From: an uncultured Acetobacteraceae bacterium
GTDB lineage: Bacteria > Pseudomonadota > Alphaproteobacteria > Acetobacterales > Acetobacteraceae
DNA: 64,000 nt
Direction of reading: 5' to 3'
NCBI GenBank assembly: GCA_964236535.1
Contig: CAXSEF010000001.1
Location: 69,818-133,817, forward strand
Under the pieces are notes generated by a model. That model did not search any database, was not told where the DNA came from, and saw only the letters and a program-made list of their open reading frames with translations. A program made the position numbers and the translations under genes. Shown in pieces: positions 20,966 to 55,774 of the stretch (position 1 is its first letter; every line of letters begins with the position of its first letter).

Positions 20966-21013
20966 GGACGGTGCGGCGCGGTATATCCCGCCCGCAGGAC
21001 GTAGGGGTTGACG

Positions 21014-21502
21014 ATGGCGTTCCTGGATCGCACCGCGCGAAGCCTGCTGCTGGGCGAGCTGCTCGCCGGCATGGGGTTGACCTTCAGCTACCTGTTCAAG
21101 CCGAAGGTGACGATCAACTACCCGTTCGAGAAGAATCCGCTGAGCCCGCGCTTCAAGGGCGAGCACGCATTACGCCGCTACCCGAACGGCGAGGAGCGCT
21201 GCATCGCCTGCAAGCTGTGCGAGGCGGTGTGTCCGGCGCTGGCGATCACCATCGAGGCGGAGCCGCGCGAGGATGGCAGCAGGCGGACGACGCGCTACGA
21301 CATCGACATGACCAAGTGCATCTACTGCGGGCTGTGCGAGGAGTCGTGCCCGGTCGACGCGATCGTCGAGGGGCCGAACCTCGAATTCGCCACCGAGACC
21401 CGCGAGGAGCTGCTCTACGACAAGACCAAGCTGCTCGCCAACGGCGACCGCTGGGAGGTCGAGCTGGCCAAGCGGCTCGAGCTCGACGCCCCGTATCGCT
21501 GA
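21014..21502 (+). CDS. nuoI: NADH-quinone oxidoreductase subunit I
   Basis: ATG 21014 is preferred over the TTG at 21008 used in the ORF track. Two 4Fe-4S motifs are present: [12 protein letters not shown] and [12 protein letters not shown]. Confidence 0.92.
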
Positions 21503-21532
21503 GATGACCCGCACGCCCGAGGACCCGCGCCG

Positions 21533-22276
21533 TTGATCGCCACGCTGTTCTGGTATGTTTTCGCGACGATCCTGGTACTGTCGGCTGCGGCGGTCGTCAC
21601 CTCGCGCAATCCCGTCCACTCGGTGCTGTTCCTGATCCTCGCGTTCTTCAACGCGGCCGGGCTCTTCCTACTTGCCGGCGCCGAGTTCCTCGCCTTCATC
21701 CTGGTGATCGTCTACGTCGGCGCGGTGGCGGTGCTGTTCCTGTTCGTCGTGATGATGCTCGACGTGAACTTCACCGAGTTGCGCGAGGGCTTCCAGCGCT
21801 ACACACCGGTCGGCGCCGCCGTCGGCGTCATCCTGCTGGTCGAGCTGGGGATATTCCTGCTCGGCTGGCAGATCTCGCCCAGCAACGCCGCACTCCGCCT
21901 GTCGGCGATGCCGGCGGGCGTGTCGAATACCGCGGCGATCGGCCGGGTGCTGTATACCGACTATGCGTTCCTGTTCCAGGTGAGCGGGCTGATCCTGCTG
22001 GTCGCGATGATCGGCGCCATCGTGCTTACCCTGCGCGAGCGCAACACGTCGCGCCACCAGGACATCGCCCGCCAGCAGGCCCGCGACCCCGCCACCACGC
22101 TGTCGATGGTCCGCGCGCCGATCGGCGAGGGCGTGGGCACGATCCTGCGCCCGCTGCCTGAACCCGAACGGCAGCGCCACCCGGCGATCCTCGCACCCCA
22201 CGGCGACGCCCATGGCGACCACCCTACCCCGGAGGCCGTCGTCGCCGACCACGAGCGGCATGGAGGCCACACCTGA
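21533..22276 (+). CDS. nuoJ: NADH-quinone oxidoreductase subunit J (TTG start; C-terminal extension)
   Basis: Contains [51 protein letters not shown]. The tail after about residue 200 is hydrophilic and His/Pro-rich. Confidence 0.85.
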
Positions 22277-22599
22277 TGCCTGGTGCCGTGATGACAGTGA
22301 CGCTGGGCCACTATCTCGCGGTCGGCGCGATCCTGCTGGTGCTGGGCATATTCGGCATCTTCCTCAACCGGAAGAACGTCATCGTCATCCTGATGTCGAT
22401 CGAGCTGATCCTGCTCGCGGTCAACATCAACCTGGTGGCGTTCTCCGCGGCGCTCGGCGACCTCGCCGGCCAGGTGTTCGCGATGTTCGTGCTCACCGTC
22501 GCCGCCGCCGAGGCCGCGATCGGCCTGGCCATCGTCGTGACCTACTTCCGCAACCGCGGCTCGATCCAGGTCGAGGACGTGAACCTGATGAAGGGCTGA
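22276..22599 (+). CDS. nuoK: NADH-quinone oxidoreductase subunit K (alternative start at ATG 22291)
   Basis: Contains [24 protein letters not shown] and [16 protein letters not shown] 22276 overlaps the nuoJ TGA. Confidence 0.9.
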
Positions 22600-22601
22600 G
22601 G

Positions 22602-24530
22602 ATGCTCTACGCGACCGCCGTGTTCGCCCCGCTGCTCGGCTCGCTGATCGCAGGGCTGCTCGGCCGCGCCATCGGCGACAGGGCGGCCCAGGCGGTCACT
22701 ATCCTGCTGATGGGCGTGGCCGCGGCGTGCGGCACGTTGAACTGGGTCGGCTACGTCTGGGACGGCGGCGTTCCCGGCGCGCTGTCCATCGCCACCTGGA
22801 TGGATGTCGGAACCTTCCAGGTCGGCTGGGACCTGCACCAGGACACCATGTCGATCTCCATGGTTGCCATGGTGACCGTCGTCGCCACGCTGGTGCACGT
22901 CTACAGCGTCGGCTACATGGGCCACGAGCAGCAGCCGACCTACCGGTTCTTCTCCTACCTCAGCCTGTTCAGCTTCGCGATGCTGGCGCTGGTCAGCGCG
23001 GACAACCTGCTGCAGCTGTTCTTCGGCTGGGAGGGCGTGGGCCTCGCGAGCTACCTGCTGATCGGCTACTGGTACGACCGGCCGTCGGCCAATGCGGCTG
23101 CGATCAAGGCGATGGTGGTCAACCGCGTCGGCGACCTGTCGTTCGCAGTCGGCATCGCGCTGGTGTTCCTGCTGTTCGGCGCCATCGACTTCCCCACCAT
23201 CTTCGCCCACGTGGCGGACCACATGGACGCCACCTACCGGGTGTTCGGCACCTCCTTCCGCGCCTACGAGGTGATCGGCGTGCTGCTGTTCATCGGCGCG
23301 ATGGGCAAGTCGGCGCAGATCTTCCTGCACACCTGGCTGCCCGACGCGATGGAGGGCCCGACGCCGGTGTCCGCGCTGATCCATGCCGCCACCATGGTCA
23401 CCGCCGGGGTGTTCCTGGTCAGCCGCATGTCGCCGATCCTGGAGTTCGCGCCCGGCGCGCTGGAGATGGTCACCTTCGTCGGCGGCACGACCTGCTTCTT
23501 CGCGGCGACCGTCGCCGTGGTGCAGCCCGACATCAAGCGCGTGATCGCCTACAGCACCTGCTCGCAACTCGGCTACATGTTCATGGCCGCCGGCGTCGGC
23601 GCGTTCCAGGCCTCGATGTTCCATCTGTTCACTCATGCCTTCTTCAAGGCGCTGCTGTTCCTCTGCGCCGGCTCGGTGATCCACGCGATGCACGACGAGC
23701 AGGACATGTTCCGCATGGGCGGGCTGTGGCGGAAGATCCCGATCACCTACGTCTGCATGTGGGCCGGCAGCCTGGCGCTCGGCGGCATCTACCCGTTCGC
23801 CGGCTACTGGTCCAAGGACGCCATCCTGGAGAGCGCCTGGGCTGCCGACACCGGCGTCGGCCTGTACGCCTTCACGCTCGGCACCATCGCCGCCTTTCTC
23901 ACCGCGTTCTATTCCTGGCGCCTGCTCATCCTCACCTTCCACGGCGAGCCGTACGACCCCGAGAAGCGTGCGCGTGCCCATGAGAGCCCGGTCTGGATGT
24001 GGGGCCCGCTGGTGCTGCTCGCGGTCGGCGCGGTGTTCGCCGGGCTGCTGTTGAAGTCGTTGTTCATCGGCGAGGACCAGGGCTGGTTCTGGCGCGGCGC
24101 GATCTTCTCCGGCCCGAACAACCATGTCCTGCTGTCGGCCGAGCACGTCCCCACGCTGATCGCCCTGTTGCCCACCGTCATGGGGCTCGGCGGGATTGCG
24201 CTGGCCTACGCGATGTACATGGTCCGCCCCGCGCTGCCGACGCAGCTCGCCACGCGGTTGCGCCCGCTCTACCTGTTCCTGCTCAACAAGTGGTATTTCG
24301 ACGAGCTGTACGACCGCAGCTTCGTCCGCCCGGCGAAGTGGCTGGCCCGCGAGCTGTGGCACGTCGGCGACGAGCGGATCATCGACGGCTTCCCCAACGG
24401 CCTGGCTCTGCTCACCACCAACGGCTCGCGCCAGGTCGTGCGCATCCAGACCGGGTCGATCGCGGTGTACGCCTTCACCATGCTGATCGGCCTCGTGGGC
24501 CTGGTCAGCATCTTCCTCCTGACGCGCTAG
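22602..24530 (+). CDS. nuoL: NADH-quinone oxidoreductase subunit L
   Basis: Starts at ATG 22602 (MLYATAVFAPLLGSLIAG). Contains FFGWEGVGLASYLLIGYW, GKSAQIFLHTWLPDAMEGPTPVSALIHAATMV. Confidence 0.93.
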   Translation: MLYATAVFAPLLGSLIAGLLGRAIGDRAAQAVTILLMGVAAACGTLNWVGYVWDGGVPGALSIATWMDVGTFQVGWDLHQDTMSISMVAMVTVVATLVHVYSVGYMGHEQQPTYRFFSYLSLFSFAMLALVSADNLLQLFFGWEGVGLASYLLIGYWYDRPSANAAAIKAMVVNRVGDLSFAVGIALVFLLFGAIDFPTIFAHVADHMDATYRVFGTSFRAYEVIGVLLFIGAMGKSAQIFLHTWLPDAMEGPTPVSALIHAATMVTAGVFLVSRMSPILEFAPGALEMVTFVGGTTCFFAATVAVVQPDIKRVIAYSTCSQLGYMFMAAGVGAFQASMFHLFTHAFFKALLFLCAGSVIHAMHDEQDMFRMGGLWRKIPITYVCMWAGSLALGGIYPFAGYWSKDAILESAWAADTGVGLYAFTLGTIAAFLTAFYSWRLLILTFHGEPYDPEKRARAHESPVWMWGPLVLLAVGAVFAGLLLKSLFIGEDQGWFWRGAIFSGPNNHVLLSAEHVPTLIALLPTVMGLGGIALAYAMYMVRPALPTQLATRLRPLYLFLLNKWYFDELYDRSFVRPAKWLARELWHVGDERIIDGFPNGLALLTTNGSRQVVRIQTGSIAVYAFTMLIGLVGLVSIFLLTR

Positions 24531-24542
24531 GCCGCCGTCCTC

Positions 24543-26141
24543 ATGAACGCCGCCAACGCCGCGGGCTTCCCGATCCTCTCCCTCATCACCTTCCTGCCGC
24601 TGCTCGGCTGCGGGTTCATCATGTCGGTGCGCGGCGCCCCGGAAGTCGTCGCCAGCAATGCCCGCTGGGCCGCGCTGTGGACCAGCCTCGTGGTGTTCGT
24701 GATCTCGCTGGTGCTGTGGGTCCGCTTCGATCCGTCGCAGCCCGGCTACCAGTTCGTCGAGCACGCCACCTGGCTGCCGGAGTTCCGCGTCGGCTACGGC
24801 ATGGGCGTCGACGGCATCAGCGTGCTGCTTGTCCTGCTCTCGACCGCGCTCACGCCGATCTGCATTCTTGCCAGCTGGGAGTCCGTGCACTTCCGGGTCC
24901 GCGAGTACATGATCGCGTTCCTGGTGCTAGAGACCATGATGGTCGGCATGTTCTCGGCGACGGACTTCATCGTGTTCTACATGTTCTTCGAGGGCGTGCT
25001 GATCCCGATGTATCTCATCATCGGGGTCTGGGGCGGCACGCGGCGGGTCTATGCCTCGTTCAAGTTCTTCCTCTACACCTTCGCGGGGTCGGTGCTGATG
25101 CTGCTCGCCCTGCTGGCGATGTGGTTCACCGTCGGCACCACCGACATCCCGACGCTGCTCGCATACAGCTTCTCGCCGCGGATGCAGACCTGGCTGTTCC
25201 TCGCCTTTCTTGCCTCCTTCGCGGTCAAGGTGCCGATGTGGCCGGTGCATACCTGGCTGCCCGATGCCCACGTCGAGGCGCCGACCGCCGGTTCGGTCAT
25301 CCTTGCCGGCGTGCTGCTCAAGATCGGCGCATACGGGTTCCTGCGCTTCTCCGTGCCGATGCTGCCGCATGCCGCGCAGCAGTTCGCGCCGCTGATGTTC
25401 GCGCTCGGCGTGATCGCGGTGATCTACACCTCGCTCGTCGCCTTTGCGCAGACCGACATGAAGAAGCTGATCGCCTACTCCTCGATTGCGCACATGGGGG
25501 TTGTCGTCATCGGCATCTTCACCTTCGACGTGCAGGGCATCGAGGGGGCGCTGTTCCTCATGCTCAGCCACGGCATCGTCTCGGCGGCGATGTTCCTCTG
25601 CGTCGGCGTCGTCTACGACCGGCTGCACACCCGCGAGATCGCCCGCTACGGCGGGCTTGCCGTCACCATGCCGCTGTATGCCGCGGTGTTCATGGTGTTC
25701 ACCATGGGCAACATCGGCCTGCCCGGCACCTCCGGCTTCGTCGGCGAGTTCCTCGTGCTGGTCGGCGCCTTCCGGGTCAGTCTCTGGCTGGCTCTGCTCG
25801 GCAGCTTCGGCATGGTGCTCGGCGCGGTCTACGGCCTGTATCTGTATCGGCGCGTCATCTTCGGCCGCCTGACCCGCGACGACCTGCGCGGACTGCTCGA
25901 CCTGTCGCCGCGAGAGATCGGCATCTTCGCCCCGCTCGTGGTGCTCACCCTGTGGATGGGTGTCTATCCCAGCAGCTTCACGCAGTTCTTCGGCGCCAGC
26001 GTCGACTCGATGGTCGGGCACCACGAGGCGGCACTCGGGTTGCCGGGCACCGACCACCTCGCCCAGGCTGTCCCCGATATGGCGGCTGTCCCCGAACTGA
26101 CGGCGATGCCTGCCACCCCGACGGCGGAGCCGGCCCGATGA
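24543..26141 (+). CDS. nuoM: NADH-quinone oxidoreductase subunit M
   Basis: 532 aa. Contains [34 protein letters not shown] and [13 protein letters not shown]. Confidence 0.93.
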
Positions 26142-27700
26142 ACCCAGCCAGCACAGCCGCGGTCCCTGCCACGCTGTCGCCGCTTGCCGGCGGCCACGCC
26201 GCCGCCTCGGTGAATCCGGGCCTGATCGCCGGCCAGCCGCTTGCCGGCGCCGGACCCTCGGTCGGCGGCCTCTCGCACTGGGCGCTCGCGCTGCCTGAGA
26301 TCGTGCTCGCCGTCCTCGGCCTGCTGATCCTGATCTACGGCGTCACCCGCCCGAAGGAGTCGGCCACCGCCTGCACCGTGCTCGTGCTCGCCGCCCTGCT
26401 GGTCACCGCGGGCCTGGTGATCGAGTCGCCTGACGGCATCGCCTATGGCGGCCTGGTCGTCTCCGACGCCTTCAGCCGCTTCGCCCAGGTGCTGATCCTC
26501 GCCGGCGCCGCGCTCACCACCACTCTTGCGCTCGACTACAACGAGCGGCAGGACATCGCCCGCTTCGAGTTCCCGCTGCTGGTGCTGTTCTCCACCATCG
26601 GCATGCTGATCATGGCGCAGGCGGCCAGCCTGATGACCCTGTACATGGGGCTCGAACTGCAGTCGCTCGCGATCTACGTGCTCTGTTCGTTCGCCCGCGA
26701 CGACGTGCGTTCCTCGGAAGCCGGCCTCAAGTATTTCGTGCTCAGCGCGCTCGCCTCCGGCCTGCTGCTGTATGGCATCTCGCTATGCTACGGGTTCTCC
26801 GGCACCATGCAGTTCGGCCTGATCGCCCAGGCGCTGGCCGAGCCCACCGGCGGCGCTACCAATGTCGGCCTGGTCATCGGCATCGTGTTCATCGTCGCAG
26901 GGCTCGCCTTCAAGCTCTCGGCGGTGCCGTTCCACATGTGGACGCCCGACGTCTACGAGGGCGCGCCCACCCCTGTCACCGCATTCATGAGCACTGCTCC
27001 CAAGGTCGCCCCATTCGCGGTGCTGCTGCGCGCGATGATCGTCCCGTTCGGCCACGTCCTGCACGACTGGCAGCAGCTCATCATCCTGGTCTCGATCTGC
27101 TCGATGCTGCTGGGCAGCCTTGCCGCGATCGGCCAGACCAGCATCAAGCGGCTGATGGCGTACTCCTCGATCGGCCACATGGGCTACGCGCTGATCGGGC
27201 TGGCCGCCGGCACCGAGGCCGGCATCCGCGGCACGCTGATCTACCTCGTCACCTACGTGTTCATGAACGCAGGCACCTTCGCCTGCATCATCGCCATGCG
27301 CCGACGCGGCCGCGCGCTGGAACGCATCGCCGACCTCGGCGGGCTCGCCAAGACCGACCCGATGCTGGCGCTGACGATGGCCGTGCTGATGTTCAGCATG
27401 GCCGGCGTGCCGCCGATGTCCGGCTTCTTCGGCAAGCTGTTCGTGTTCCGCGCCGCGGTGCAGTCCGGTCTGTGGACGCTCGCCGTCATCGGCGTGCTCA
27501 CCAGCGTCATCGGGCTGTACTACTACCTGCGTGTCGTGAAGGTGATGTACTTCGACGAGGCCGAGGATGCCTTCGACACCCGCGCCGCCTCGCTCTCCTT
27601 CGTTGCCACCGCCGGCGGGCTGTTCACCTTCCTGTTCTTCCTGGTGCCTGCCCCGGTGGTCCAGGCCGCAGAAACCGCGGCGCAGGCGCTGTTCAATTGA
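26138..27700 (+). CDS. nuoN: NADH-quinone oxidoreductase subunit N (about 40-aa N-terminal extension)
   Basis: ATG 26138 overlaps the nuoM stop (ATGA). Contains [27 protein letters not shown] and [14 protein letters not shown]. Confidence 0.9.
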
Positions 27701-27712
27701 GCGCGGGGGGCG

Positions 27713-27953
27713 AGGCAGGCAGGCAAGAAAGGCCAGAGGCTCTGCCTCTGGACTCCGCTCAAGGCGAGGCCTTGAGAATCCATCTGGAAGGCGCCTCGGG
27801 GCACCTGCGACCAGACCATGCGGGACTTGGGAGCGCTTTGCGATCCTTCGGCCGCGTTGCGGGATCGCACCGACATGCGCCGGTCCCGGGGCGGCTCGCC
27901 CCTGGGGGGTCCCCGCTTCCAGGCCATGGGCAGCGCCCAGCCTGGCTTGCCTG
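27713..27953 (-). repeat. Stacked-hairpin repeat(s), composite or degenerate, downstream of nuoN
   Basis: Left part is aggcaggcaggcaagaaaggCCAGAGGCtctGCCTCTGGactccgctcaaggcgaggccttgagaatcc. Right part is gggcagcgcccagcctggcttgcctg. Confidence 0.65.
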
Positions 27954-27960
27954 ATCCGGT

Positions 27961-28770
27961 ATGCTTCTCGTCATCGACGCCGGCAACACCAACGTCGTGT
28001 TCGCGGTGCACGACGACACCCGCTGGGTCGGCAATTTCCGCATCGCGACCGAGTCGCAGCGCACCTCGGACGAGTATGCCGTATGGCTGATGGCGCTGCT
28101 CGCGCTGCGTGGCATCGACCCCGCACGGATCAGCGCGGCGGTGATCGGCACCGTGGTCCCGGCGGCGCTCTACCATCTGCGCCGGCTGTGCCGCGACTGG
28201 TTCGAGGTGGAGCCGCTGGTTGCCCGCTCGACGCTGCACTGGGGCTTCAAGATATGCGTCGACACCCCGGCCGAGGTCGGCGCCGACCGGCTGGTCAACG
28301 CGCTGGCCGCGCACGAGCGCTACGTGGGCCCGCTGGTGGTGATCGATTTCGGCACCGCGACAACATTCGACGTGGTAGACCAGGACGGATCATATATCGG
28401 CGGCGTGATCGCGCCTGGCATCAACCTGTCGATCGAGGCGCTGCACCAGGCCGCGGCACGCCTGCCGCGCATCGGCATCGGCCGGCCGCAGGCGGTGATC
28501 GGCCGCTCGACGGTGCCGGCCATGCAGTCCGGCATCTACTGGGGCTATGTCGGCCTGATCGAGGGGCTGGTTGCGCGCATCCAGGGCGAGTTCGACCGCC
28601 CGCTGAAGGTCGTGGCCACGGGGGGACTGGCGCCGCTGTTCTCCGAGGGGACGACGGTGATGGAGCGCATCGACCCCGACCTGACCCTTGACGGGTTGCG
28701 CATGTTGGCACAACGCAACCCAACACCCATATTGTCTCGTGACCGAACAAGACTGATTGAAGGCGATTAA
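27961..28770 (+). CDS. coaX: Type III pantothenate kinase
   Basis: Contains [38 protein letters not shown] and GGVIAPG. Confidence 0.92.
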
Positions 28771-37116: not shown

Positions 37117-39111
37117 TCACGCGGAGGCGCCGGCCGCGTGGGTGGGCAAGGTGCCGGAGGCGGGGTCGTGCCTGGTGGCAGTGGCGGACAGGCCGTGCTG
37201 CGCCAGGGTGGCGGGCGACACGTCGTCCGGGCGGGTGGTGATGCGGGCGGTGGAGCGGCCGCGGGTGAGCTGGTCCACGTCGCGGACGGCGCCGCGCGAG
37301 GCGCTGGTGGCGAGCGCGGCATAGGCGCGCAGCGCGGTGGAGACGACGCGGTCGCGGCGGATGGGGCGCCAGGCGTCGTCGCCGCGCGCCTCCATGCGGG
37401 CGCGGCGGGCGGCCATCTCGGTAGGGTCGACAGCGACGCGCAGGATGCGGTCGGGTATGTCGATCTCGATGCGGTCGCCCTCCTCGACAAGGCCGAGAGC
37501 GCCGCCCTCCGCCGCCTCGGGCGAGACGTGGCCGATCGCGAGGCCCGAGGTGCCGCCGGAGAAGCGGCCGTCGGTGACCAGCGCGCAGGATTTCCCCAGG
37601 CCCTTGGATTTCAGGTAGCTGGTCGGGTAGAGCATCTCCTGCATGCCGGGGCCGCCCTTGGGGCCCTCGTAGCGGATGACGACGACGTCGCCCGATGCCA
37701 CACGGTTGCCGAGGATGGCGTCGACGGCGGCGTCCTGGCTCTCGAAGATGCGGGCCGGGCCGGCGAAGGACAGGGCGGCGGGGTCCACGCCTGCGGTCTT
37801 CACGATGGCGCCGTCCTCGGCGATGTTGCCGTGCAGCACGGCCAGGCCGCCGTCGCGGCTGAAGGCGTGGGCACTGTCGCGGATGACGCCGGCTGCGCGG
37901 TCGAGGTCGAGCTCGTCGTATCGGCTGGCCTGGCTGAACGCCTCGACGGTGCGCACGCCACCGGGTGCCGCGCTGAACAGGAGGCGGGCCTCCGGGGCGG
38001 CGGTGGGCTCGGCGATATCCCATTTGGCGAGCGCATGGCCCAGCGTCTGGGCGTGCACGGTGGGGACGTCGTGGTGGATCAGTCCGGCGCGGTCGAGCTC
38101 GCCGAGCAGCGCCATGATGCCGCCGGCGCGATGGATGTCCTCCATGTGCACGTTGGCCACCGAGGGCGAGACCTTGCACAGGTTGGGGACGCGCCGGCTG
38201 AGGCGGTCGATGTCGGTGATCGCGAAATCCACGTGGCCCTCCTGCGCAGCGGCGAGCAAATGGAGGACGGTGTTGGTCGAGCCGCCCATGGCGATGTCGA
38301 GCGACATGGCGTTCTCGAATGCCTGGAAGCTCGCGATGGTGCGCGGCAGGGCAGTGGCGTCGTCCTGTTCGTACCAGCGACGGGCGAGGTCGACGATCAG
38401 CCAGCCGGCCTCGACGAACAGACGGCGGCGGTCGGCATGGGTGGCGAGCGTGCTGCCGTTGCCGGGGAGCGCCAGGCCGAGCGCCTCGGTCAGGCAGTTC
38501 ATGGAATTGGCGGTGAACATGCCGGAACAGGAGCCGCAGGTCGGGCAGGCCGAGCGCTCCATCACCTCGGCCTCGGCGTCACTCACCTGGGGATCGGCGG
38601 CGGCGACCATGGCGGTGATCAGGTCGGCGCGTCGGGTGATGCCGGCGGTGGTGATCTTGCCGGCTTCCATCGGGCCACCGGACACGAACACCGCAGGGAT
38701 GTTCAGCCGCATCGCCGCCATCAGCATGCCGGGGGTGATCTTGTCGCAGTTGGAGATGCAGACCAGCGCGTCGGCGCAGTGCGCCTCGACCATGTACTCG
38801 ACCGCGTCGGCGATCAGCTCGCGCGACGGCAGGCTGTACAGCATGCCCTGGTGGCCCATCGCGATGCCGTCGTCGACGGCGATGGTGTTGAATTCCTTGG
38901 CGACGCCACCGGCCGCCTCGATCTCGCGCGCCACCAACTGGCCGAGGTCCTTGAGGTGGACGTGGCCGGGGACGAACTGGGTGAACGAGTTGGCGACGGC
39001 GACGATCGGCTTGTTGAAGTCGCCGTCCTGCATGCCGGTGGCACGCCAGAGAGCGCGGGCTCCAGCCATGTTGCGGCCGTGGGTGCTGGTGCGGGAACGG
39101 TAGGCAGGCAT
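37117..39111 (-). CDS. ilvD: Dihydroxy-acid dehydratase (about 45-aa C-terminal extension)
   Basis: 664 aa. Contains [60 protein letters not shown] and [11 protein letters not shown]. Confidence 0.93.
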
Positions 39112-39160
39112 GCTGGGGTTTCCTCGGCGGCGCGGCGAAGGTTAGCGTTGCGGCGGTGGC

Positions 39161-39230
39161 GAAGGCCAGGACAGGCAGGCGCATGAAGGAGTTTGCCCCG
39201 AACCCGCCAGGGCAGACCGCCCTGGATCGG
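39161..39230. repeat. Weak, degenerate stacked-hairpin repeat fragment
   Basis: Sequence is gaaggccaggacaggcaggc ... gccccgaacccgCCAGGGCagaccGCCCTGGatc. It shows only partial similarity to the family. Confidence 0.35.
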
Positions 39231-39325
39231 GATTTCTCGGGTTTGCGGCACATGGGCACCGCGTGCAGGCCGGGACAAGGGATCAGCCTCTGACGGGTGC
39301 AGGGGCCGATCCCTGAGAGTGCCTG

Positions 39326-39499
39326 CTATAGGACGGCGTTGCCCGCGGTAAGTGCAAGGACCAGGAAAACCAGGAAGATCGCGAGGAAGACGAAGAACAG
39401 AATCTTGGCGATGCCCGCGGTCGCTGCGGACAGACCCGAGAAGCCGAAGAAGCCGGCGATAATAGAGATTACGGCGAAGATGATGGCGTAGCGCAGCAT
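39326..39499 (-). CDS. UPF0391 / DUF1328 small membrane protein (57 aa)
   Basis: Below the ORF-track size cutoff, so translated by hand: [57 protein letters not shown]. This is the typical UPF0391 (YtjA-like) sequence pattern. Confidence 0.8.
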
Positions 39500-39643
39500 G
39501 TCGAAGTGCTCCCACAGGTTCCGACGTCAGAGGTCAGACCCGGGACAACGTACTGACACATAGCCGGTTGCACAATCGCGTGACACGGCCGGTTGGCGCG
39601 ACGTGCGGCCGGAGCAGGTGCCCGGCCGCGCGTCGCAGCAGGC

Positions 39644-40165
39644 TCAGCGCGGAGAAAGCACCATGATCATCTGGCGGTTCTCCATGCGCGGCATCTGCTC
39701 GACCTTGGTCTTGTCGTCCATGTCGGTGCGGATGCGCTCCAGCACCTTCACTCCGAGGTCCTGGTGGGCCATCTCGCGGCCGCGAAAGCGCAGGGTGACC
39801 TTGACCTTGTCGCCCTCGTCGATGAACGAGTTCATGGCGCGCAACTTGACTTGGTAGTCATGGTCGTCGATATTTGGACGGACCTTGACCTCCTTGATCT
39901 CGATGACTTTCTGCTTCTTCTTGGCCTCGTTCTTCTTCTTCTGGGCTTCGTACTTGAACTTGCCATAGTCGACCATCTTGACGACGGGCGGGTCGGCGTT
40001 CGGGCTGATCTCGAGCAGGTCCAGGCCGATGGCGTAGGCTCTCAGCAACGCGTCGCGCGCGCCCATCACGCCCTGCATCTCGCCCTCGGCGTCGATCAGG
40101 CGCACCTGGGGAACGCGGATGTCCTCGTTAACTCTGGGTCCGTCGCGGCTCGGGGCGGCAGACAT
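39644..40165 (-). CDS. infC: Translation initiation factor IF-3 (start codon uncertain)
   Basis: Contains [48 protein letters not shown] and [19 protein letters not shown] chose ATG at 40165 (MSAAPSRDG..). The ORF track extends to 40390, but that upstream part is not IF-3-like. An in-frame ATA lies 5 codons upstream. Confidence 0.85.
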
Positions 40166-48776: not shown

Positions 48777-49628
48777 CTACGAGGTGGCCAGAACCCGGGT
48801 GCCGCGAGGGGCGGCTTCGGTGGTGGTCTCGGCATCTTCGTGGGCGTGGTCGTGGGCGATGTAGAGCGCCAGGCCGGTGAAGGTGAAGCCGCCGACCAGG
48901 TTGCCGACGATGACCGGCAGCTCGTTCCACAGCAGGTATTGGACGACGGTCGCCGGGGCGCCGAGCATCAGCCCGAGCGGGAACAACGCCATGTTGACGA
49001 CGGTATGCTCGAAGCTCAGGGCGAAGAAGATCACGATCGGCGGCCAGCAGCCGATGATCTTGCCGGCCGAGGTGCTGGCGGCGAGGCCCATGGTGATGCC
49101 GAGCACGACCAGCCAGTTGCACAGCATGGCCTTGACGAACACGGTCAGCAGGCCGGCGGTGCCGAGCGCCTCGTAGCCGGCCGAGCGGGCGGCGACGGCG
49201 GCGCGGATGCGATCACCCACCGGGCCGCCGGTGTCGTGTCCGGCGCTGGTGAGTGCGATCCACATGAGGAGGGCGAAGAGCAGGGAGCCCGCGTAGTTGC
49301 CGACGAAGGTCAGCACCCAGTTGCGCACCAGCTGGGCCATGGTGGCGCGGCGGGCGATCACCGCCATCGGCAGCAGGGCGAAGGAGCCGGTGATCAGGTC
49401 GAGGCCGAGCACCATGATGATCGCCAGGCCGACCGGGAAGACCAGCGCGCCGACGATCGGCAGGCCGGTCTGCGCGGTGGCGGTGAAAGCGAAGGTGGTG
49501 GCCACGCCGAGGATGGCGCCGGCGAGCGCAGAGCGCACCAGGAGGCGGGCGGCCGACAGGCGGGCGCGGGTTGCCCCGTACTCGACCATGATGCCCACGA
49601 GACGGGCAGGAGTGATGACTTCGCTCAT
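48777..49628 (-). CDS. Formate/nitrite transporter (FNT) family channel
   Basis: Start set at ATG 49628 (MSEVITP...). 283 aa with about six TM segments. Contains GLDLITGSF, AMLCNWLV and ALSFEHTVVNM (the FNT signature region). Confidence 0.85.
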   Translation of the reverse strand: MSEVITPARLVGIMVEYGATRARLSAARLLVRSALAGAILGVATTFAFTATAQTGLPIVGALVFPVGLAIIMVLGLDLITGSFALLPMAVIARRATMAQLVRNWVLTFVGNYAGSLLFALLMWIALTSAGHDTGGPVGDRIRAAVAARSAGYEALGTAGLLTVFVKAMLCNWLVVLGITMGLAASTSAGKIIGCWPPIVIFFALSFEHTVVNMALFPLGLMLGAPATVVQYLLWNELPVIVGNLVGGFTFTGLALYIAHDHAHEDAETTTEAAPRGTRVLATS

Positions 49629-49768
49629 TGCGGCGATGTTCCCGGATGCACGACGGAACCGGGCGCCCCGGCGAGCGGGGCTGCGGGTGCCGCATGCCGT
49701 CGGCGGACGCAACGTTCGTACCAGGGCTTGCCAGGGACTGCACGCCACAAGCACTGGGGCTGCACGCC

Positions 49769-49868
49769 GCAAGCAAGGCTGGGCTTTGCCCAGACCCACC
49801 AGAGGCCGCGGGCCTCTGGACACCATCTGGTCAGGGGCTGTGGCTGCACGTCTCCTGGCCTTTGCTGC
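49769..49868 (+). repeat. Stacked-hairpin repeat, partial copy (A-type start)
   Basis: Sequence is gcaagcaaggCTGGGCtttGCCCAGacccaCCAGAGGCCgcgGGCCTCTGGacacc ... ctcctggcctttgctgc. Confidence 0.7.
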
Positions 49869-49963
49869 GTTCGGTTTTCCACCAGGGCGCCGCTGGCGTT
49901 TGCCGGCGGCGCACGCCACGCTGGCTGCGCAGGGCCCGACCGGCCGCCTGGGGAGAGACGCGG

Positions 49964-50437
49964 ATGACGGGACGGATCGAGGCCAGGCTGGCGGAGCTCG
50001 GGATCGTGCTGCCCAGGCCGATGGCGCCGGTGGCCAACTACGTGCCGACGGTGGCGAGCGGGCGGCTGGTCACGGTGTCGGGGCAGCTGCCGATGCAGGA
50101 CGGCGCGCTGGCGGCCGCGGGACGGCTTGGCGACGGGGTGGACGTCGAGGCGGGACAGGCGGCGGCGCGGCTGTGCCTGGTCAACGTGCTCGCGCAGCTG
50201 CGGGCGGCCTGCGGGGGGGATCTGGACCGGGTGGTGCGGGTGGTGCGGCTGGGCGGGTTCATCGCGGCCGCGGCCGAGTTCACGCAGCACGCGCAGGTGA
50301 TGAACGGGGCGTCGGACCTCGCGGTCGCGGTGTTCGGCGACGCGGGGCGGCACGCGCGCAGCACGGTGGGGGTGGCGTCGCTGCCGCTGGGGGCGGCGGT
50401 GGAGGTCGAGGGGGCGTTCGAGGTCGAACCCGGATAG
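49964..50437 (+). CDS. RidA/YjgF-family protein
   Basis: ATG 49964 is preceded by GGGAGAG. 157 aa. Contains LPRPMAPVANYVP....GRLVTVSGQLP and ARSTVGVASLPLGAAVEVE. Confidence 0.8.
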   Translation: MTGRIEARLAELGIVLPRPMAPVANYVPTVASGRLVTVSGQLPMQDGALAAAGRLGDGVDVEAGQAAARLCLVNVLAQLRAACGGDLDRVVRVVRLGGFIAAAAEFTQHAQVMNGASDLAVAVFGDAGRHARSTVGVASLPLGAAVEVEGAFEVEPG

Positions 50438-50530
50438 GCACGCCGGACCAGGCTCTGGCCGGAGCGGGCAAGGCCGGCTGGAGGGGCGACCGGCGGGCGT
50501 ATTGCCCGACGCCGGACCGGACGGCAGACG

Positions 50531-50596
50531 CCTTGAGGGTGCGGGTTGGGGGGCTCAGCCCCAGCGGAATACAGAGGCAGAGCCTCTGGCCTTGCC
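50531..50596 (+). repeat. Stacked-hairpin repeat, half copy (C-type end)
   Basis: Sequence is ccttgagggtgcgggttgGGGGCTcaGCCCCagcggaataCAGAGGCagaGCCTCTGgccttgcc. Confidence 0.75.
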
Positions 50597-50636
50597 TTGA
50601 CCTTCCCTCGCCCGCCGCCGCCGCCATATCCGGGGG

Positions 50637-51818
50637 ATGCCGGACGCAAAGCCGACCCTGAGCCTGAGTCTGCACCGTTCGATCCACGAGATCGCACCCG
50701 ACGACTGGGACGCCTGCGCGGGGCCGGACAATCCGTTCGTCTCGTTCGCATTCCTGTCGGCGGTCGAGGACAGCGGGTCGGCGGGGTCGCGGACAGGGTG
50801 GCTGCCGCAGCACGCGGCGCTGCGCGATGCGGGCGGGCGGCTGGTGGCCTGTGCGCCGATGTATGCCAAGGCGCACAGCTACGGCGAGTATGTATTCGAT
50901 CACGGCTGGGCGGCGGCGTTCGAGCGGGCGGGCGGGGATTACTACCCGAAGCTGCAGGTGGCCTCGCCGTTCAGCCCGGTGACCGGGCCGCGCCTGCTGC
51001 TGCGGGCGGATTCGGGCATGGCGCCGGGGGCGTTGCGGCTCGCCCTGGCGGACGCGCTGACGCAGGCGTGCCGGCAGCTCGACCTCAGCTCGGTGCACGC
51101 GACGTTCTGCACCGAGGCGGAGTGGGCGCAGCTCGGGGAGGCGGGATGGCTGGCGCGGGTGGGCACGCAGTTCCACTGGGAGAACGCGGGCTATGCGGGA
51201 TTTGACGATTTCCTCGGCGCGTTGTCGTCGCGCAAGCGCAAGACGCTGCGGCGGGAGCGGCGGGATGCGCAGGCGTGCGGGCTGGAGTTCCTGACCCTGC
51301 GCGGGCCGGAGATCGAGGCCAAGCACTGGGAGGCGTTCTTCCGGTTCTACCACTCCACGGTGGATCGCAAGTGGGGCAATGCGTATCTGACGAAGAAGTT
51401 CTTTCCGTTGCTTGGGGAGCGGCTGGGGGAACGAGTGGTGCTGATGCTGGCGATGGAAGCGGGCCGGCCGGTGGCGGGGGCGCTGAACCTGCAGGGTTCG
51501 GACGCGCTGTACGGGCGGAACTGGGGGGCCGCGGGGGAGTGGCCGTTCCTGCATTTCGAGCTGTGCTATTACCGGGCGATCGACTACGCGATCGAGCACG
51601 GGCTGGCGCGGGTCGAGGCGGGGGCGCAGGGCGAGCACAAGATCCAGCGGGGGTATCGGCCGCGGCCGACGTACTCGGCGCACTGGATCGCGCATCGGGG
51701 GCTGCGGGCGGCGGTAGCGGAGTTCCTGGAGCTGGAGCGGCCGGCGCGGCTGGAGGAGATGGCGGAGCTGGACCTGCTGTCGCCGTATCGGCGGGACGGG
51801 GACGCTGAGGCGGGGTGA
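50637..51818 (+). CDS. DUF482 / FemAB-like GNAT-fold acyltransferase family protein
   Basis: 393 aa. Contains WDACAGPDNPFVSFAFLSAVEDSGS, PMYAKAHSYGEYVFDHGWA, YYPKLQVASPFSPVTGPRLL and FELCYYRAIDYAIEHGL. Confidence 0.8.
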   Translation: MPDAKPTLSLSLHRSIHEIAPDDWDACAGPDNPFVSFAFLSAVEDSGSAGSRTGWLPQHAALRDAGGRLVACAPMYAKAHSYGEYVFDHGWAAAFERAGGDYYPKLQVASPFSPVTGPRLLLRADSGMAPGALRLALADALTQACRQLDLSSVHATFCTEAEWAQLGEAGWLARVGTQFHWENAGYAGFDDFLGALSSRKRKTLRRERRDAQACGLEFLTLRGPEIEAKHWEAFFRFYHSTVDRKWGNAYLTKKFFPLLGERLGERVVLMLAMEAGRPVAGALNLQGSDALYGRNWGAAGEWPFLHFELCYYRAIDYAIEHGLARVEAGAQGEHKIQRGYRPRPTYSAHWIAHRGLRAAVAEFLELERPARLEEMAELDLLSPYRRDGDAEAG

Positions 51819-53788
51819 ATGCAGCGGTTCTAGTGAAGAACGGAATAGGGCGAGGTCTTTCTAGGTCGTTAAGGGCTTGGTCAAGGACGGGTTGGTGGAA
51901 AACTTACGTAGGCTTGGCCGACAAATAAACGGCATACAGAGCGCCGGAAGCGGATAATCGTCGTTCACTTTGCATTGTAGAAGGTTGTTGGCTGGCGGGT
52001 TGCTTCGGCCGAGCTGTGTGATAACAAATCAAAGTTCCAAAGCCAGTCAAGATGGAAGGCGAGCCAGAACGATTTATAAGACAAGGTTTGGCGGATTGGT
52101 GCGGTGCTGCAACGAATGAGCCTGTGGAACCGGCGCTGTTAGATATAGCCAGCTAAGGAAGCTAAGGAATGCCGAAAAAGATCTGGAAAGTTGGTGAGGT
52201 CTTTGGCATCGGCCGAGATTTGCCAACTAATTATGTCGAGCGGTTTGGAATAGATGACAAACTTATTAATAATTTAACTCGCGATCAGCATCTTGTAATT
52301 TACGGAAGCTCAAAGCAAGGCAAGACTTGCCTTAGAAAACATTGCTTGCAAGACGTGGATTATATCGTAGTTTCTTGTTTAAATAATATGGATTTACGTC
52401 AACTGCACTCCGTAATTTTGAAAAGTGCTGGCTATGTGGTGCAAGAGTCATCGACTAGAACAATTGACGGCAAAGCAAAAGTAGAAGCCAAGTTTGGCGT
52501 AAAATTTGGCATTCCGGGCATTGCTAAGGCAACATTAGGAACAGGCGCTGAGGTTGGAGCCGGTGTCACAGATGAGAGCATTACTAAACATCTTGAGCTA
52601 GATCCCAGCGATGCCAATGAAATTATTGGGGCGTTGCAAGAAATAAAGTTTACAAGATATATTGTGCTTGAAGATTTTCATTATCTTCCATATGAGACGC
52701 AGCAAGACTTTGCATTTGCATTGAAAGTATTCCACGAGAATTCTAAGATAACTTTTATAATAGTAGCAGTTTGGCGTGAAGAAAATCGATTAATTCTATT
52801 TAATGGGGATCTAACTGGTCGGGTTATTCCGATAGACGCAGACGCATGGGATGACACGCAGCTCAACAAAGTTATGTCTGATGGCGAACATTTGCTTAAC
52901 ATTCAGCTTCCCTCCCAATTCAAGTCTGAAGTAATTAAGGGCTGCTCTGAAAGCGTTTACATAGTTCAAGAAGTGTGTCACAGAGCATGCACGGAAAGTG
53001 GTTTGCACGAGACCGCAAGTAACTTTAGAAATATAATACCGACTAGAGCCCCATTAGATTACATTCAAGAGATAGTTCGAGAGCAAAGTGGCAGATATAA
53101 GGTATTTTTGCAGAACTTCTCGTTTGGCTTTCAGACCACTGATTTAGAAATGTATAAATGGATACTTTTTCCTATTATAAAGTCTAACGTTGATCTTCTT
53201 GAGAAGGGTTTGAGTTATAACTACATTAAATCTTTTATTGAAAGTAAACACCCGGAAGGTAACAGACTTAAGCCCGGAAATTTGACTCAGGCACTTCAGC
53301 TTCTGAGTAAGCTGCAAATCGCAAAAAACTTTAAGCCGTTTATCCTGGATTATGACAGCGCAAATCTCTTGCTATCTATTGTTGATAAAGGATTCTTAAT
53401 ATGGCTGAGTGGACAGGATCGCTCTGCTTTATTAGAGTTGATTGATCTGCCTGTTAGCTAATTTGTCAGTATTCTGGAGAATAGTTTTAGAGTTTTCCTA
53501 CTCTTGATTGATAAGACCTATAATAGGTGAGAGAACACAAGGATTCTAACTTAGACAGCGTGCGGAAAACGGGTGATTGCGTCACCTCGTCATTGGGCTA
53601 CGGCGGCGTTCACGGTGGTCCGTTGCGCCACTGTATACCAAACTCTGCTGGCTTATGCCCATGTACGGGAAGCCCCGAAACAAATTTTCCCGCACATGCA
53701 GTTTGAAACGGAACAAGGCCGGCGTAACTGAGGCTTTCGCCCAACGGCACAATGTTGGCGCTGTGCCGGAGGGCTTTTGTTACGCGGG
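51819..53788. other. AT-rich genomic islet (putative horizontally acquired DNA) with a single cargo gene
   Basis: Hand counts of 60-nt lines give about 70% G+C in flanking genes, about 40-58% in 51841-52140, and about 32-45% in 52169-53461. The switch occurs right at the stop codon of the DUF482 gene and at the repeat/thrS 3' end. No integrase, transposase, tRNA or flanking direct repeat was seen. Confidence 0.8.
52169..53461 (+). CDS. Orphan P-loop NTPase (ATPase_2 / ORC-Cdc6-like AAA core), function unknown
   Basis: It is the only long ORF in the islet (430 aa). An AAGGA SD lies 9 nt upstream. Walker A is GSSKQGKT (aa 46-53, nt 52304-52327). Walker B-like is YIVLEDF (aa 164-170, nt 52658-52678) followed by HYLP, as in the archaeal-ATPase-type DEFQYL motif. 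A hydrophobic strand ITFIIVAVW follows. The C-terminal ~190 aa are helical with no recognisable nuclease or effector motif. Confidence 0.8.
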   Translation: MPKKIWKVGEVFGIGRDLPTNYVERFGIDDKLINNLTRDQHLVIYGSSKQGKTCLRKHCLQDVDYIVVSCLNNMDLRQLHSVILKSAGYVVQESSTRTIDGKAKVEAKFGVKFGIPGIAKATLGTGAEVGAGVTDESITKHLELDPSDANEIIGALQEIKFTRYIVLEDFHYLPYETQQDFAFALKVFHENSKITFIIVAVWREENRLILFNGDLTGRVIPIDADAWDDTQLNKVMSDGEHLLNIQLPSQFKSEVIKGCSESVYIVQEVCHRACTESGLHETASNFRNIIPTRAPLDYIQEIVREQSGRYKVFLQNFSFGFQTTDLEMYKWILFPIIKSNVDLLEKGLSYNYIKSFIESKHPEGNRLKPGNLTQALQLLSKLQIAKNFKPFILDYDSANLLLSIVDKGFLIWLSGQDRSALLELIDLPVS

Positions 53789-53843
53789 TTTGGGGGCTCA
53801 GCCCCCAGCGGAGTCCAGAGGCAGAGCCTCTGGCCTTGCTGCC
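53789..53843 (+). repeat. Stacked-hairpin repeat, half copy (C-type end), overlapping the thrS 3' end
   Basis: Sequence is tttGGGGGCTcaGCCCCCagcggagtCCAGAGGCagaGCCTCTGGccttgctgcc. The thrS stop (complement of 53798-53800) lies in the loop of the first hairpin. Confidence 0.8.
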
Positions 53844-55774
53844 GCTTGACCTGACCTGAGATCCGGCGGCGTCGCCTCGGCCGCGAGCAGGGCTACGGCG
53901 TCGGCGAGGTTGAGGACCTCCTGGGCCGGGCTGCCGAGGCGGCGCAGCGCGACGGTGCCTTCCTCGGCCTCGCGGCGGCCGACGACGAGCAGCAGCGGCA
54001 CGTGGGCGAGGCTGTGCTCGCGGACCTTGGCGTTGATCTTCTCGTTGCGCAGGTCGGTGCGGACGGAGAGGCCGGCGGCGCGGAGCTGGCCGGCGACGAT
54101 CTCGGCGTAGGGGTTGGCGTCGGAGACGATGGTGGCGACGACGGCCTGGACCGGGGCAAGCCAGAGCGGGAAGCGGCCGGCGTACTGCTCGATGAGGATG
54201 CCGAGGAAGCGCTCGAAGCTGCCGAGGATGGCGCGGTGGAGCATGACGGGGCGGACCTTGGCGCCGTCCTCGGCGATGTAGGCGGCGTCGAGGCGCGAGG
54301 GCAGGAAGAAGTCGACCTGCAGGGTGCCGCACTGCCAGTCGCGGCCGATGGCGTCGCGCAGGACGAACTCGAGCTTGGGGCCGTAGAAGGCGCCTTCGCC
54401 GGGGTTGACCTCGTAGTCCACGCCGGCGATGCGGCAAGCCTTGATGAGGGCGGCTTCGGCGCGGTCCCAGGTGGCGTCGTCGCCGGTGCGGGTGGTGGGG
54501 CGGTCGGCGAACTTGATGCGGAACTCGGGGAAGCCGAAGTCGGCGTAGACCGAGCGCAGCAGGGCCACGAAGCGGGCGGTCTCCTCGGCGACCTGGGCCT
54601 CGGTGCAGAAGATGTGGGCGTCGTCCTGGGTGAAGGCGCGGACGCGCATGATGCCGTGCAGGGCGCCGGAGGGTTCGTAGCGGTGGCAGGCGCCGAACTC
54701 GGCCATGCGCAGGGGCAGCTCGCGGTAGCTGCGCAGGCCGTGGTTGAAGATCTGGACGTGGCAGGGGCAGTTCATCGGCTTGAGGGCGAGGTCCTTGTCC
54801 TCGTCCTCGACGCGGGCGACGAACATGTGCTCGCGGTACTTTTCCCAGTGGCCGGAGCGTTCCCACAGGTTGCGGTCGACGAGCTGGGGGGTGCGGACCT
54901 CGGCGTAGCCGTTGGTGTCGAGGCGGCGGCGCATGTAGGACTCGCAGGTGCGATAGAGGCGCCAGCCCTTCTCGTGCCAGAAGATGCTGCCGGTGGCTTC
55001 CTCCTGGATGTGGAACAGGTCCATCTCGCGGCCGAGGCGGCGGTGGTCGCGGCGCTCGGCTTCCTCCAGGCGGTGCAGGTAGGCGTCGAGCTCCGATCTG
55101 TCGCGCCAGGCGGTGCCGTAGATGCGGCTGAGCATGGCGTTGCGGTGGTCGCCACGCCAGTACGCGCCGGCGACCTTCATCAGCTTGAAGGCGGGGCCGA
55201 TGTCGGCGGTGGCGCGCATGTGCGGGCCGCGGCAGAGGTCGATCCAGTCGCCCTGGCTGTAGAGGGTGATGACCTGGTCGATCCCGAGGTCGTGGATCAG
55301 CTCGGCCTTGTAGGACTCGCCGCGGGCCTCGAAGAAGGCGATGGCATCGTCGCGGTCGCGGACCTCGCGGGCGAAGGGGCTGTTGCGCGCGATGATCTCG
55401 CGCATGCGGGCCTCGATGGCGGGGAAGTCCTCGGTGGTGAACGGGGTGTCGCGGGCGAAGTCGTAGTAGAACCCGTCCTCGATCAAGGGGCCGATGGTGA
55501 CCTGGGTGCCGGGGTAGAGCGACTGCACGGCCTCGGCGAGCACGTGGGCGGTGTCGTGGCGGATCAGCTCCAGGGCGTCGGGGTCGCGGCGGGTGACGAA
55601 GCGGACCTGGGCGTCGTGCTCGATCGGGCGGGCGAGATCCTGGAGCGCACCGTCGACGCGCATCGCGAGTGCCGCCTTGGCGAGGCCGGGGCCGATGTCG
55701 GCGGCGAGCGCAGTGCCGGTCACCGGGGCCTCGAAGCGGCGGATCGAGCCGTCGGGCAGGGTGATTGCGGGCAT
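53798..55774 (-). CDS. thrS: Threonine--tRNA ligase
   Basis: 658 aa. Starts [14 protein letters not shown] (TGS domain). Contains HVLAEAV, class II motifs FRHEPSG-like ([11 protein letters not shown]) and [10 protein letters not shown]. Confidence 0.95.

Follow-up and report, generated by a model that had tools for sequence, protein, structure and literature searches.

The stretch of DNA analyzed here (hereafter the window; 64,000 nucleotides from an uncultured Acetobacteraceae bacterium, positions 69,818 to 133,817 of contig CAXSEF010000001.1) carries a short islet of low guanine-plus-cytosine (GC) content with a single gene, which encodes a 430-residue AAA+ nucleoside triphosphatase (NTPase). 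Judged by its profile match, this ATPase is a catalogued member of PDC-S59, a known but uncharacterized candidate family of the PADLOC database, and thus not the "undescribed" system that an initial annotation of the window had taken it for. On balance, we read the gene as a horizontally acquired single-gene cassette whose product is most likely a self-contained defense protein against phages or other mobile genetic elements (MGEs). Within this reading, a role in defense against MGEs is the firmer part and is probable, while the non-enzymatic trap mechanism outlined below is a tentative proposal.

Taken together, the match to PDC-S59, the nesting of homologs in Hma loci, their presence at a P2 prophage hotspot, neighbors such as AbiTii and toxin-antitoxin modules, the signature of horizontal transfer, and a sister family that carries a TIR domain make a defense role likely. 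If PDC-S59 proteins do defend their hosts, they would be among the few immune ATPases without a nuclease, NADase, protease, or membrane effector, and one would have to ask by what means an AAA+ oligomer could stop a phage unaided. The present analysis adds to the existing record of the family the evidence from the P2 hotspot and from embedding in Hma, the TIR-bearing sister family, and the definition of an insertion as the distinguishing feature.

The PDC-S59 Family, Its TIR-Bearing Sister, and Its Fold

The assignment rests on a near full-length match to the PADLOC-DB profile (E = 1.9e-71, 239 bits), in which residues 7-412 of the protein align with profile positions 4-399 of 428. PDC-S59 is one of the 145 "guilt-by-embedding" phage-defense candidates (PDCs) of Payne et al. 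(bioRxiv, 10.1101/2024.01.29.577857), which are described there as untested and were predicted from members embedded inside BREX, DISARM, or type I restriction-modification (RM) loci. S59 is named neither in the text of that preprint nor in the supplements consulted, and a later study (10.1101/2024.09.26.614923) did not have it among the candidates that it tested. Searching the literature for PDC-S59 in several spellings gave only irrelevant results and no test, and a search combining AAA_22, TIR, and anti-phage gave nothing. The window protein has in common with the family the near full-length profile match, the single-gene organization, and homologs embedded in defense systems, and nothing separates it from the family except that the window copy lies outside any defense locus.

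The only other PADLOC match was a weak one to PDC-S01 (E = 0.008) in the P-loop region. Of the three Pfam families that the initial annotation had singled out for checking, AAA_22 (PF13401) matched below threshold (17.1 bits, where the cut-off is 27; E = 0.007), and PF01637 and PF13191 were not reported for the ATPase even at E-values up to 10. Searches of NCBIfam and of PDB sequences with the ATPase returned no match, neither Pfam nor PADLOC detected a TIR domain in it, and Pfam gave no TniB match. A weak PHROG match was obtained over residues 35-281 (phrog_6841, of unknown function, E = 2e-9), indicating remote relatives among catalogued phage proteins, though deposited phage genomes contain no close homolog.

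The reading frame and Walker A motif described in the initial annotation are both present, as is the YIVLEDFHYLP sequence at residues 164-174, some 110 residues away. Residue invariance was judged on an alignment of 34 homologs, in which both nucleotide-binding motifs are strongly conserved (Table 1). Also invariant are V11, G13, R16, P19, Y22, R25, D29, R38, and H41 of the N-terminal segment, as well as N212, G213, D214, L215, and R218. At least 1950 homologs were collected, all of them annotated as "hypothetical", and a HMMER scan of 1.84 billion cluster representatives gave 407 clusters (at 50% identity) with E ≤ 1e-30 and 2266 with E ≤ 1e-3. Full-length members are almost all 415-450 residues long and stand alone.

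A family related to PDC-S59 came to light through WP_168200140.1, a protein of 496 residues from an Acetobacter vaccinii plasmid in which the shared ATPase module is followed by a TIR domain, and whose gene lies between two integrase genes and beside mazEF. With the ATPase part of this protein as the seed, we gathered a sister family of at least 2264 proteins of about 505 residues, annotated AAA_22 + TIR_2, the TIR domain of which is similar to NAD+-hydrolase TIRs such as AbTIR. An hhalign comparison of the two families gave a probability of 99.2% (E = 7.5e-20) over 346 columns, which is essentially the whole PDC-S59 protein, and the end of the window protein coincides with the start of the sister family's TIR. 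The N-terminal segment aligns with the sister N-terminus, the Walker B box with VIVDDFHRL, and the C-terminal half with the region preceding the TIR. The two families thus have in common the N-terminal segment, the Walker A motif, a (D/E)DFH(Y/R)L Walker B box, the putative arginine-finger region, a lid with a C-H-x-x-C helix, the C-terminal helix/hairpin module, and mobile or defense contexts (integrases, MazEF). They differ in that the C-terminal TIR is present in the sister family whereas no TIR or other enzyme domain is found here, and in that the insertion is found only here.

This insertion, of about 62-65 residues and containing the Gly-rich loop, is absent from the sister family and, on sequence comparison, is the feature that distinguishes PDC-S59 from it. 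The distance from Walker A to Walker B is accordingly 110 residues in the window protein and 106-113 across PDC-S59, but only 44-48 in the sister family. In the AlphaFold2 model, the insertion consists of a helix (76-86), a beta-hairpin (89-109), a flexible loop, a strand (142-144), and a second helix (149-158), with G88, G101, K104, D145, D148, and N150 invariant and an acidic LELDxxDxND element. The Gly/Ala/Lys-rich segment KAKVEAKFGVKFGIPGIAKATLGTGAEVGAGV to which the initial annotation drew attention is indeed present at residues 102-133 (7 Gly, 6 Ala, and 5 Lys in 32 residues), but its sequence is not conserved, and what the family has kept is the insertion with a flexible Gly-rich loop of constrained length. 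Nowhere else in the protein is sequence conservation as low as in this loop at 111-138 (majority-residue frequency 0.38), and no other stretch is left disordered by AlphaFold2. Across the family it is 23-28 residues long, with 20% Gly, as compared to 6% in the whole protein, and 13% Glu. Two other interpretations of the loop were rejected. Membrane activity is at odds with a maximum 19-residue hydropathy of 1.18 and with a Gly/Glu/Ser/Thr-rich composition in homologs, and a second P-loop, suggested by a BLASTP pairing of the sister GPSGIGKT with GIPGIAKAT in the loop, is an artifact of gapless alignment in an unconserved segment.

Fusions within PDC-S59 itself are rare. One relative of 669 residues (P0327) has an N-terminal alpha/beta-hydrolase with a THSLGG nucleophile elbow, and two others (P0379 and P0384) are joined to an nSTAND3 NTPase; weak TniB matches were found in some relatives, and weak nSTAND Pfam matches in relatives and fusion partners. 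Conflict systems typically combine a conserved core with effector-type domains that can be exchanged. We note that on a Leisingera plasmid an alpha/beta-hydrolase gene stands about 450 nucleotides upstream of the homolog on the same strand (L084:5514-6542), and a hydrolase-effector sub-lineage comprising this locus and P0327 is possible.

An AlphaFold2 model based on the family alignment (predicted local distance difference test score, pLDDT, of 86.4; predicted template modeling score, pTM, of 0.81) has an AAA+ fold of the RFC/Orc1-Cdc6/PAB2304 kind. Foldseek searches of the PDB with this model returned RFC subunits, archaeal Orc1/Cdc6 (2qby_A, 1fnn), RuvBL, and PAB2304 (2qen) at E-values of about 1e-6. 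The best global match was PAB2304, with template modeling (TM) scores of 0.46/0.55, followed by Orc1/Cdc6 (0.42/0.47 for 2qby_A) and RFC, which bears out the ORC-like or archaeal ATPase_2-like fold that had been predicted from the motifs. Among the hallmark positions of ORC/Cdc6 AAA+ proteins is a helix-extension-helix or initiator-specific motif after strand 2 (PMC12839542). In the model, the insertion follows the strand at 65-69 and appears to occupy this position, its extension being the beta-hairpin and a loop of about 27 residues. R218, which precedes the strand at 219-223, matches a further hallmark position in both model and alignment, and this position and its invariance suggest that it may act as an arginine finger.

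The AAA+ fold is shared with ORC/Cdc6, RFC, PAB2304 (the "Walker-type ATPase" of Pfam ATPase_2), and the stand-alone BrxD of type 2 BREX, and the resemblance to ORC/Cdc6-type proteins appears to extend to the insert that follows strand 2, to an arginine conserved ahead of strand 5, and to the helical bundle beyond the core. However, sequence identity to these proteins is only 10-13% and no Pfam family is above threshold, the insert is a beta-hairpin with a long Gly-rich loop in place of a short helix-extension-helix, and the C-terminal half is without a significant structural match. Furthermore, the window ATPase is no replication gene, and its distribution is patchy and horizontally transferred.

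The C-terminal half was modeled separately with a pLDDT of 93.3. Its roughly 200 residues are mostly helical in the predicted structure, with two short strands, and the absence of a recognizable enzyme domain noted in the initial annotation stands. This half has no match in Pfam, NCBIfam, or PDB sequences, and shows weak echoes of the RFC/RuvB lid and winged-helix region as well as matches to MarR-type proteins at E-values of about 1 in Foldseek. From the topology of the model, a DNA-binding winged helix at the C-terminus is plausible. The more specific claim of an Orc1-type winged helix was dropped, as was that of a hidden nuclease such as a PD-(D/E)xK fold, since the confident C-terminal model found no significant match in the PDB. 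A C-H-x-x-C motif is located in the lid helix (VCHRAC; window positions 52976-52990, residues 270-274), with C270 conserved in at least 90% of homologs and C274 invariant, and the motif recurs in the sister family where the two align (LLCHKLC); judging by sequence, it could be a metal or redox site.

Horizontal Transfer and Genomic Contexts

A total of 217 pattern-confirmed loci were identified among 185,579 species genomes (one genome per species). Identity remains at about 50% across Alpha-, Beta-, and Gammaproteobacteria, Acidobacteriota, Cyanobacteria, Actinomycetota, Firmicutes, Bacteroidota, a candidate phyla radiation (CPR) bacterium, and two haloarchaea, and in 72 of the 74 loci with enough flanking sequence, the GC content of the gene is lower than that of its surroundings by 5 points or more (mean difference 15 points). 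Such a patchy spread at this level of identity, combined with the low relative GC content, is the signature of frequent horizontal transfer.

The window copy fits this pattern, with 39.5% GC in the ATPase gene as compared to 73.1% in the flanks and chromosome, a difference absent from the initial annotation. The drop in GC content comes right behind the upstream gene's stop codon, and values above 0.55 are regained near position 53550, which leaves a foreign segment of only about 1.7 kb. A Logan contig from run ERR10807076 (L001, 2057 bp) is 100% identical to window positions 51764-53820 and ends near both GC transitions, indicating that the low-GC islet was assembled there as a contig of its own.

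No ATPase homolog is present at 80 related thrS loci from metagenomes (identity up to 79%), and the closest orthologs of the FemAB-like gene (88-89% identity) lack the islet, are not adjacent to thrS, and have other variable cargo instead. This shows that the acquisition is lineage-specific and took place in a variable neighborhood. In the relatives L088-L091, the cargo lies between the RidA-like and FemAB-like genes (corresponding to window positions 49600-51800) and comprises Phd/PIN and HicB/PIN_3 toxin-antitoxin pairs, fragments of insertion sequences (IS), and one HNH and one HTH_3 gene; the RidA-like (49628-50437) and FemAB-like (50637-51818) genes of the window are adjacent. The neighborhood is variable in the lineage of the window. 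Adjacency of FemAB and thrS is found in just 1 of the 80 metagenomic thrS loci, and the adjacency of GT9 and thrS, on the other side of thrS, is conserved across related loci. As the FemAB-like and thrS loci of relatives do not match as empty sites, no precise insertion borders can be defined. An exact-sequence look-up of the FemAB-like protein gave no match, and no non-coding flank is shared with any homolog locus, the best DNA identity being about 65% and confined to the coding sequence. Overall, the window copy represents one candidate defense gene gained by horizontal transfer, an event that is ordinary in kind but very recent.

All-against-all clustering of open reading frames within 5 kb on either side of the gene at 81 loci gave no recurrent neighbor family. 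The two largest clusters, ABC transporters (8 loci) and ribonucleotide reductases (4 loci), were considered as conserved partners and set aside as housekeeping coincidences. Among the 144 nearest neighbors, no Pfam or PADLOC family occurs more than three times, the median upstream gap is 271 nucleotides, and the neighbors are of mixed orientation. The single-gene organization therefore holds: the search for a conserved partner among homolog neighborhoods, which the initial annotation had proposed, came back empty, and the description of a stand-alone P-loop NTPase with neither a recognizable effector nor a partner gene agrees with both the domain searches and the neighbor surveys.

Several homologs are found in defense or phage contexts. 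In two metagenome-assembled genomes (MAGs), from Faecalibacterium (L009) and a rumen Clostridia member (L035), the homolog is nested between HmaA and HmaB on the same strand, with both Hma matches at E = 0. In 13 proviral contigs it adjoins the P2-type portal gene gpQ (portal identity 58-100%), with a gpA match on the left in 9 of these 13 loci, which are all of those with left-side sequence. At L181, it has P2 replication gene A (phrog_91) on one side and the genes for portal, terminase, scaffold, and major head on the other. The stretch from gpA to gpQ corresponds to the published old/tin anti-phage hotspot of P2 (PMC9122126). Together, the Hma and P2 loci make the defense role suggested in the initial annotation plausible from context. 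Elsewhere, the homolog of a conjugative Shewanella plasmid adjoins AbiTii, that of L172 is surrounded by PIN, HigBA, and MazE modules, and that of Burkholderia gladioli has P2-like tail genes next to it, together with genes for a Dam methylase and a Peptidase_M78 protein. A clade of about 28% identity (L213, L214, L216-L218) occupies lambdoid prophages between a DnaC-like helicase-loader gene and ninB, a slot that differs from the P2 gpA-gpQ slot used by the clade of about 48% identity. Homologs are carried by 50 IMG/VR contigs; there are also plasmid copies, one of them beside ParAB, and many copies, including those of the window and of P0002, stand among housekeeping genes.

A number of observations weigh against the reading of the gene as a self-contained defense protein. 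The literature search found no experiment on any member of PDC-S59, and the window gene is solitary among housekeeping genes, such that the window offers no local defense context; upstream of its ATG we found no consensus sigma-70 promoter. In the wider family, defense genes are a minority of the 144 nearest neighbors, no homolog was found in deposited phage genomes, and there is no enrichment at provirus ends (9 of 40 contigs have the gene in the terminal 15%, against about 12 expected). With respect to mechanism, the Gly/Glu-rich loop is acidic and thus a poor fit with direct DNA contact, and a Foldseek search of the PDB with the C-terminal half (226-430) gave nothing significant (best E = 0.049, TM ≤ 0.33).

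Proposed Mode of Action and Alternatives

Taking these points into account, a possible mode of action can be outlined. At the level of motifs, the canonical Walker A and the invariant "hhhhED" Walker B suggest that the protein would bind ATP, with the "ED" box pointing to a switch and not a motor. As the sister family consists of only this module and a TIR domain, the sensor would have to lie in the module, and we suggest that it would itself recognize a phage-derived cue, either nucleic acid or nucleoprotein. Recognition may then lead to ATP-dependent oligomerization with R218 as the arginine finger, which in the sister family would activate the C-terminal TIR NADase. In PDC-S59, which has no enzyme domain and has its insertion apparently where ORC/Cdc6 proteins contact DNA, the oligomer itself is proposed to be the effector, which would stoichiometrically trap or block either phage DNA or a nucleoprotein of replication or packaging. 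The insertion, with its K104 hairpin, Gly/Glu loop of fixed length, and acidic LELDxxDxND element, would together with the C-terminal module let the oligomer trap its target. This non-enzymatic trap is possible but doubtful, and somewhat more doubtful is the evolutionary corollary that the insertion took over the output role of the TIR, giving AAA+ switch immunity without an enzymatic effector. If true, however, enzymatic and steric outputs would be exchangeable on one sensor scaffold. The TIR without insertion in the sister family and the insertion without TIR in PDC-S59 offer a comparison for separating sensing from output.

A functional precedent may be found in Tin, a single protein without enzymatic activity that poisons the single-stranded DNA-binding protein and thereby stops T-even phages from replicating. 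This is stoichiometric interference encoded at the same P2 locus, and the analogy lies in the gpA-gpQ hotspot and in function only, with no relationship of sequence or fold expected. STAND/Avs proteins resemble PDC-S59 in their "NOD" layout, which is NTPase-helical-(winged-helix-like), in a Walker B of the switch type that has two acidic residues, and in a logic of sensing, oligomerization, and output. They differ in that the window protein has no TPR, WD40, or LRR repeats or effector domain, is 430 residues long as compared to about 1000 or more, and matches no PADLOC Avs or NLR model. Both PDC-S01 and PDC-S27 likewise are single-gene ATPase candidates of the guilt-by-embedding screen, but contain a PD-(D/E)xK nuclease-superfamily domain of which none is detectable here; in the one reported test, PDC-S01 gave no protection (10.1101/2024.09.26.614923). 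Septu, Gabija, PARIS, and Lamassu, the ABC-ATPase systems named in the initial annotation, are set apart by the absence of any match to their PADLOC models, by the AAA+ and not ABC fold, and by the lack of a partner effector.

It is unlikely, though of the alternatives this survives best, that the protein is a sensor or regulator that depends on a partner, acting through an unlinked or host-encoded effector or modulating neighbors such as Hma. The window ATPase has no effector domain of its own, related modules are joined to effectors (TIR in the sister family, the alpha/beta-hydrolase of P0327, and PD-(D/E)xK in PDC-S01 and PDC-S27), two homologs are embedded in Hma, and the hydrolase gene of the Leisingera plasmid lies just upstream of its homolog. 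However, no neighbor family is found in more than 3 of the 144 nearest neighbors or in more than 8 of the 81 loci, nor are the flanks conserved. Furthermore, the gene moves by itself into hosts as different as bacteria and haloarchaea, which speaks against reliance on one particular host partner.

We regard as improbable a function outside defense, either as a maintenance or transposition ATPase of a mobile element, comparable to the AAA_22 proteins of the TniB/TnsC/IstB kind, or as selfish cargo. The PDC label is after all a prediction only, the weak AAA_22 match (E = 0.007) and the weak TniB matches in some relatives fit such a function, and copies are found on plasmids, once beside ParAB, and in prophages. 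Yet the window protein itself has no TniB match, within the window it is flanked by neither a transposase or integrase nor inverted repeats and none of these recurs near homologs, the positions in P2-like prophages and Hma are those of accessory defense cargo and not of core replication or transposition genes, and the sister family bears a TIR domain.

The family might also be an abortive-infection toxin, the triggered oligomer of which drains ATP or titrates an essential host protein and thereby arrests the cell. The TIR of the sister family resembles NAD+-hydrolase TIRs such as AbTIR, so that the output there would be metabolic collapse, which by analogy could be kept here in another form; the ATPase motifs and the putative arginine finger are intact, and the L172 homolog stands among toxin-antitoxin modules. 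We nevertheless consider this distinctly improbable. STAND NTPases are slow switch-type enzymes with "DD" Walker B boxes, and the "ED" box of PDC-S59 is like those of slow switch-type NTPases and unlike those of high-turnover motors. No case is known to us in which a plain AAA+ ATPase depletes ATP in defense.

Finally, it is very improbable indeed that the gene is what decay has left of a TIR-type or multigene system (the "remnant of a larger system" of the initial annotation), the effector having been lost and the ATPase being now a decoy or without function: although the sister family has the TIR that PDC-S59 lacks and the islet is tiny and isolated, the 407 clusters of nearly all full-length, stand-alone proteins, the dozens of positions invariant across phyla, the intact reading frame, and the conserved insertion that the family gained for itself point to purifying selection on a distinct functional design.

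Features of the Locus

The coordinates of the features discussed above, and of the genes that flank the islet, are given in Table 1. The neighbors of the ATPase gene in the window are the FemAB-like gene and thrS, neither of which is a candidate partner, and no integrase or transposase lies in the islet or flanks the gene. No direct or inverted repeats bracketing the islet, no Rfam or tRNA elements within it, and no terminator-like site 3' of the ATPase stop codon were found.

Table 1. Coordinates of the ATPase gene, its protein features, and its surroundings in the window
Feature	Position	Strand	Residues	Basis or remarks
Left flank, native FemAB-like/GNAT N-acyltransferase gene, outside the system	50637..51818	+		PF04339, E = 7.5e-156; islet absent beside relatives' orthologs
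Upstream non-coding part of the islet	51820..52168	+		GC about 0.47-0.57
Coding sequence of the AAA+ NTPase, PADLOC PDC-S59 family	52169..53461	+	1-430	Open reading frame with ATG start; PDC-S59 profile match
Conserved N-terminal segment VFGIxRDxPxNYVERxxIDDKLxxxLTRxxH, before strand 1	52190..52288	+	8-40	
Walker A/P-loop, GSSKQGKT	52304..52327	+	46-53	G46, S48, K49, Q50, G51, K52, and T53 invariant in 34 homologs
Family-specific insertion after strand 2	52394..52648	+	76-160	AlphaFold2 secondary structure; spacing as compared to the sister family
Gly/Glu/Ala-rich disordered loop, core of the Gly-rich insert	52499..52582	+	111-138	pLDDT < 50
Walker B box YIVLEDFHYL, "hhhhED" variant	52658..52687	+	164-173	E168, D169, F170, H171, Y172, and L173 invariant
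Putative arginine-finger region, directly before strand 5 (219-223)	52820..52822	+	218	Invariance; ORC/Cdc6 hallmark position
C-terminal half, lid-like helical bundle and helix/beta-hairpin module of winged-helix-like topology	52844..53458	+	226-430	
AT-rich 3' tail of the islet	53462..53550	+		GC profile
Right flank, native threonyl-tRNA synthetase gene thrS, outside the system	53798..55774	-		Open reading frame; ATPase homolog at 0 of 80 related loci

Directly upstream of the gene, the 9-mer GCTAAGGAA occurs twice in tandem at 52152-52169 as a perfect duplication, the last base of which is the A of the start codon. The two copies of GCTAAGGAA give rise to two AAGGA motifs, one at 52155-52159, which lies 9 nucleotides before the ATG and resembles a Shine-Dalgarno sequence, and a second that abuts it. 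Elsewhere in the window, two other stretches are also lower in GC than the 70-75% background, namely positions 20000-28000 (GC 0.64-0.69, with a strongly negative AT skew down to -0.33) and 39000-40000 (GC 0.625).

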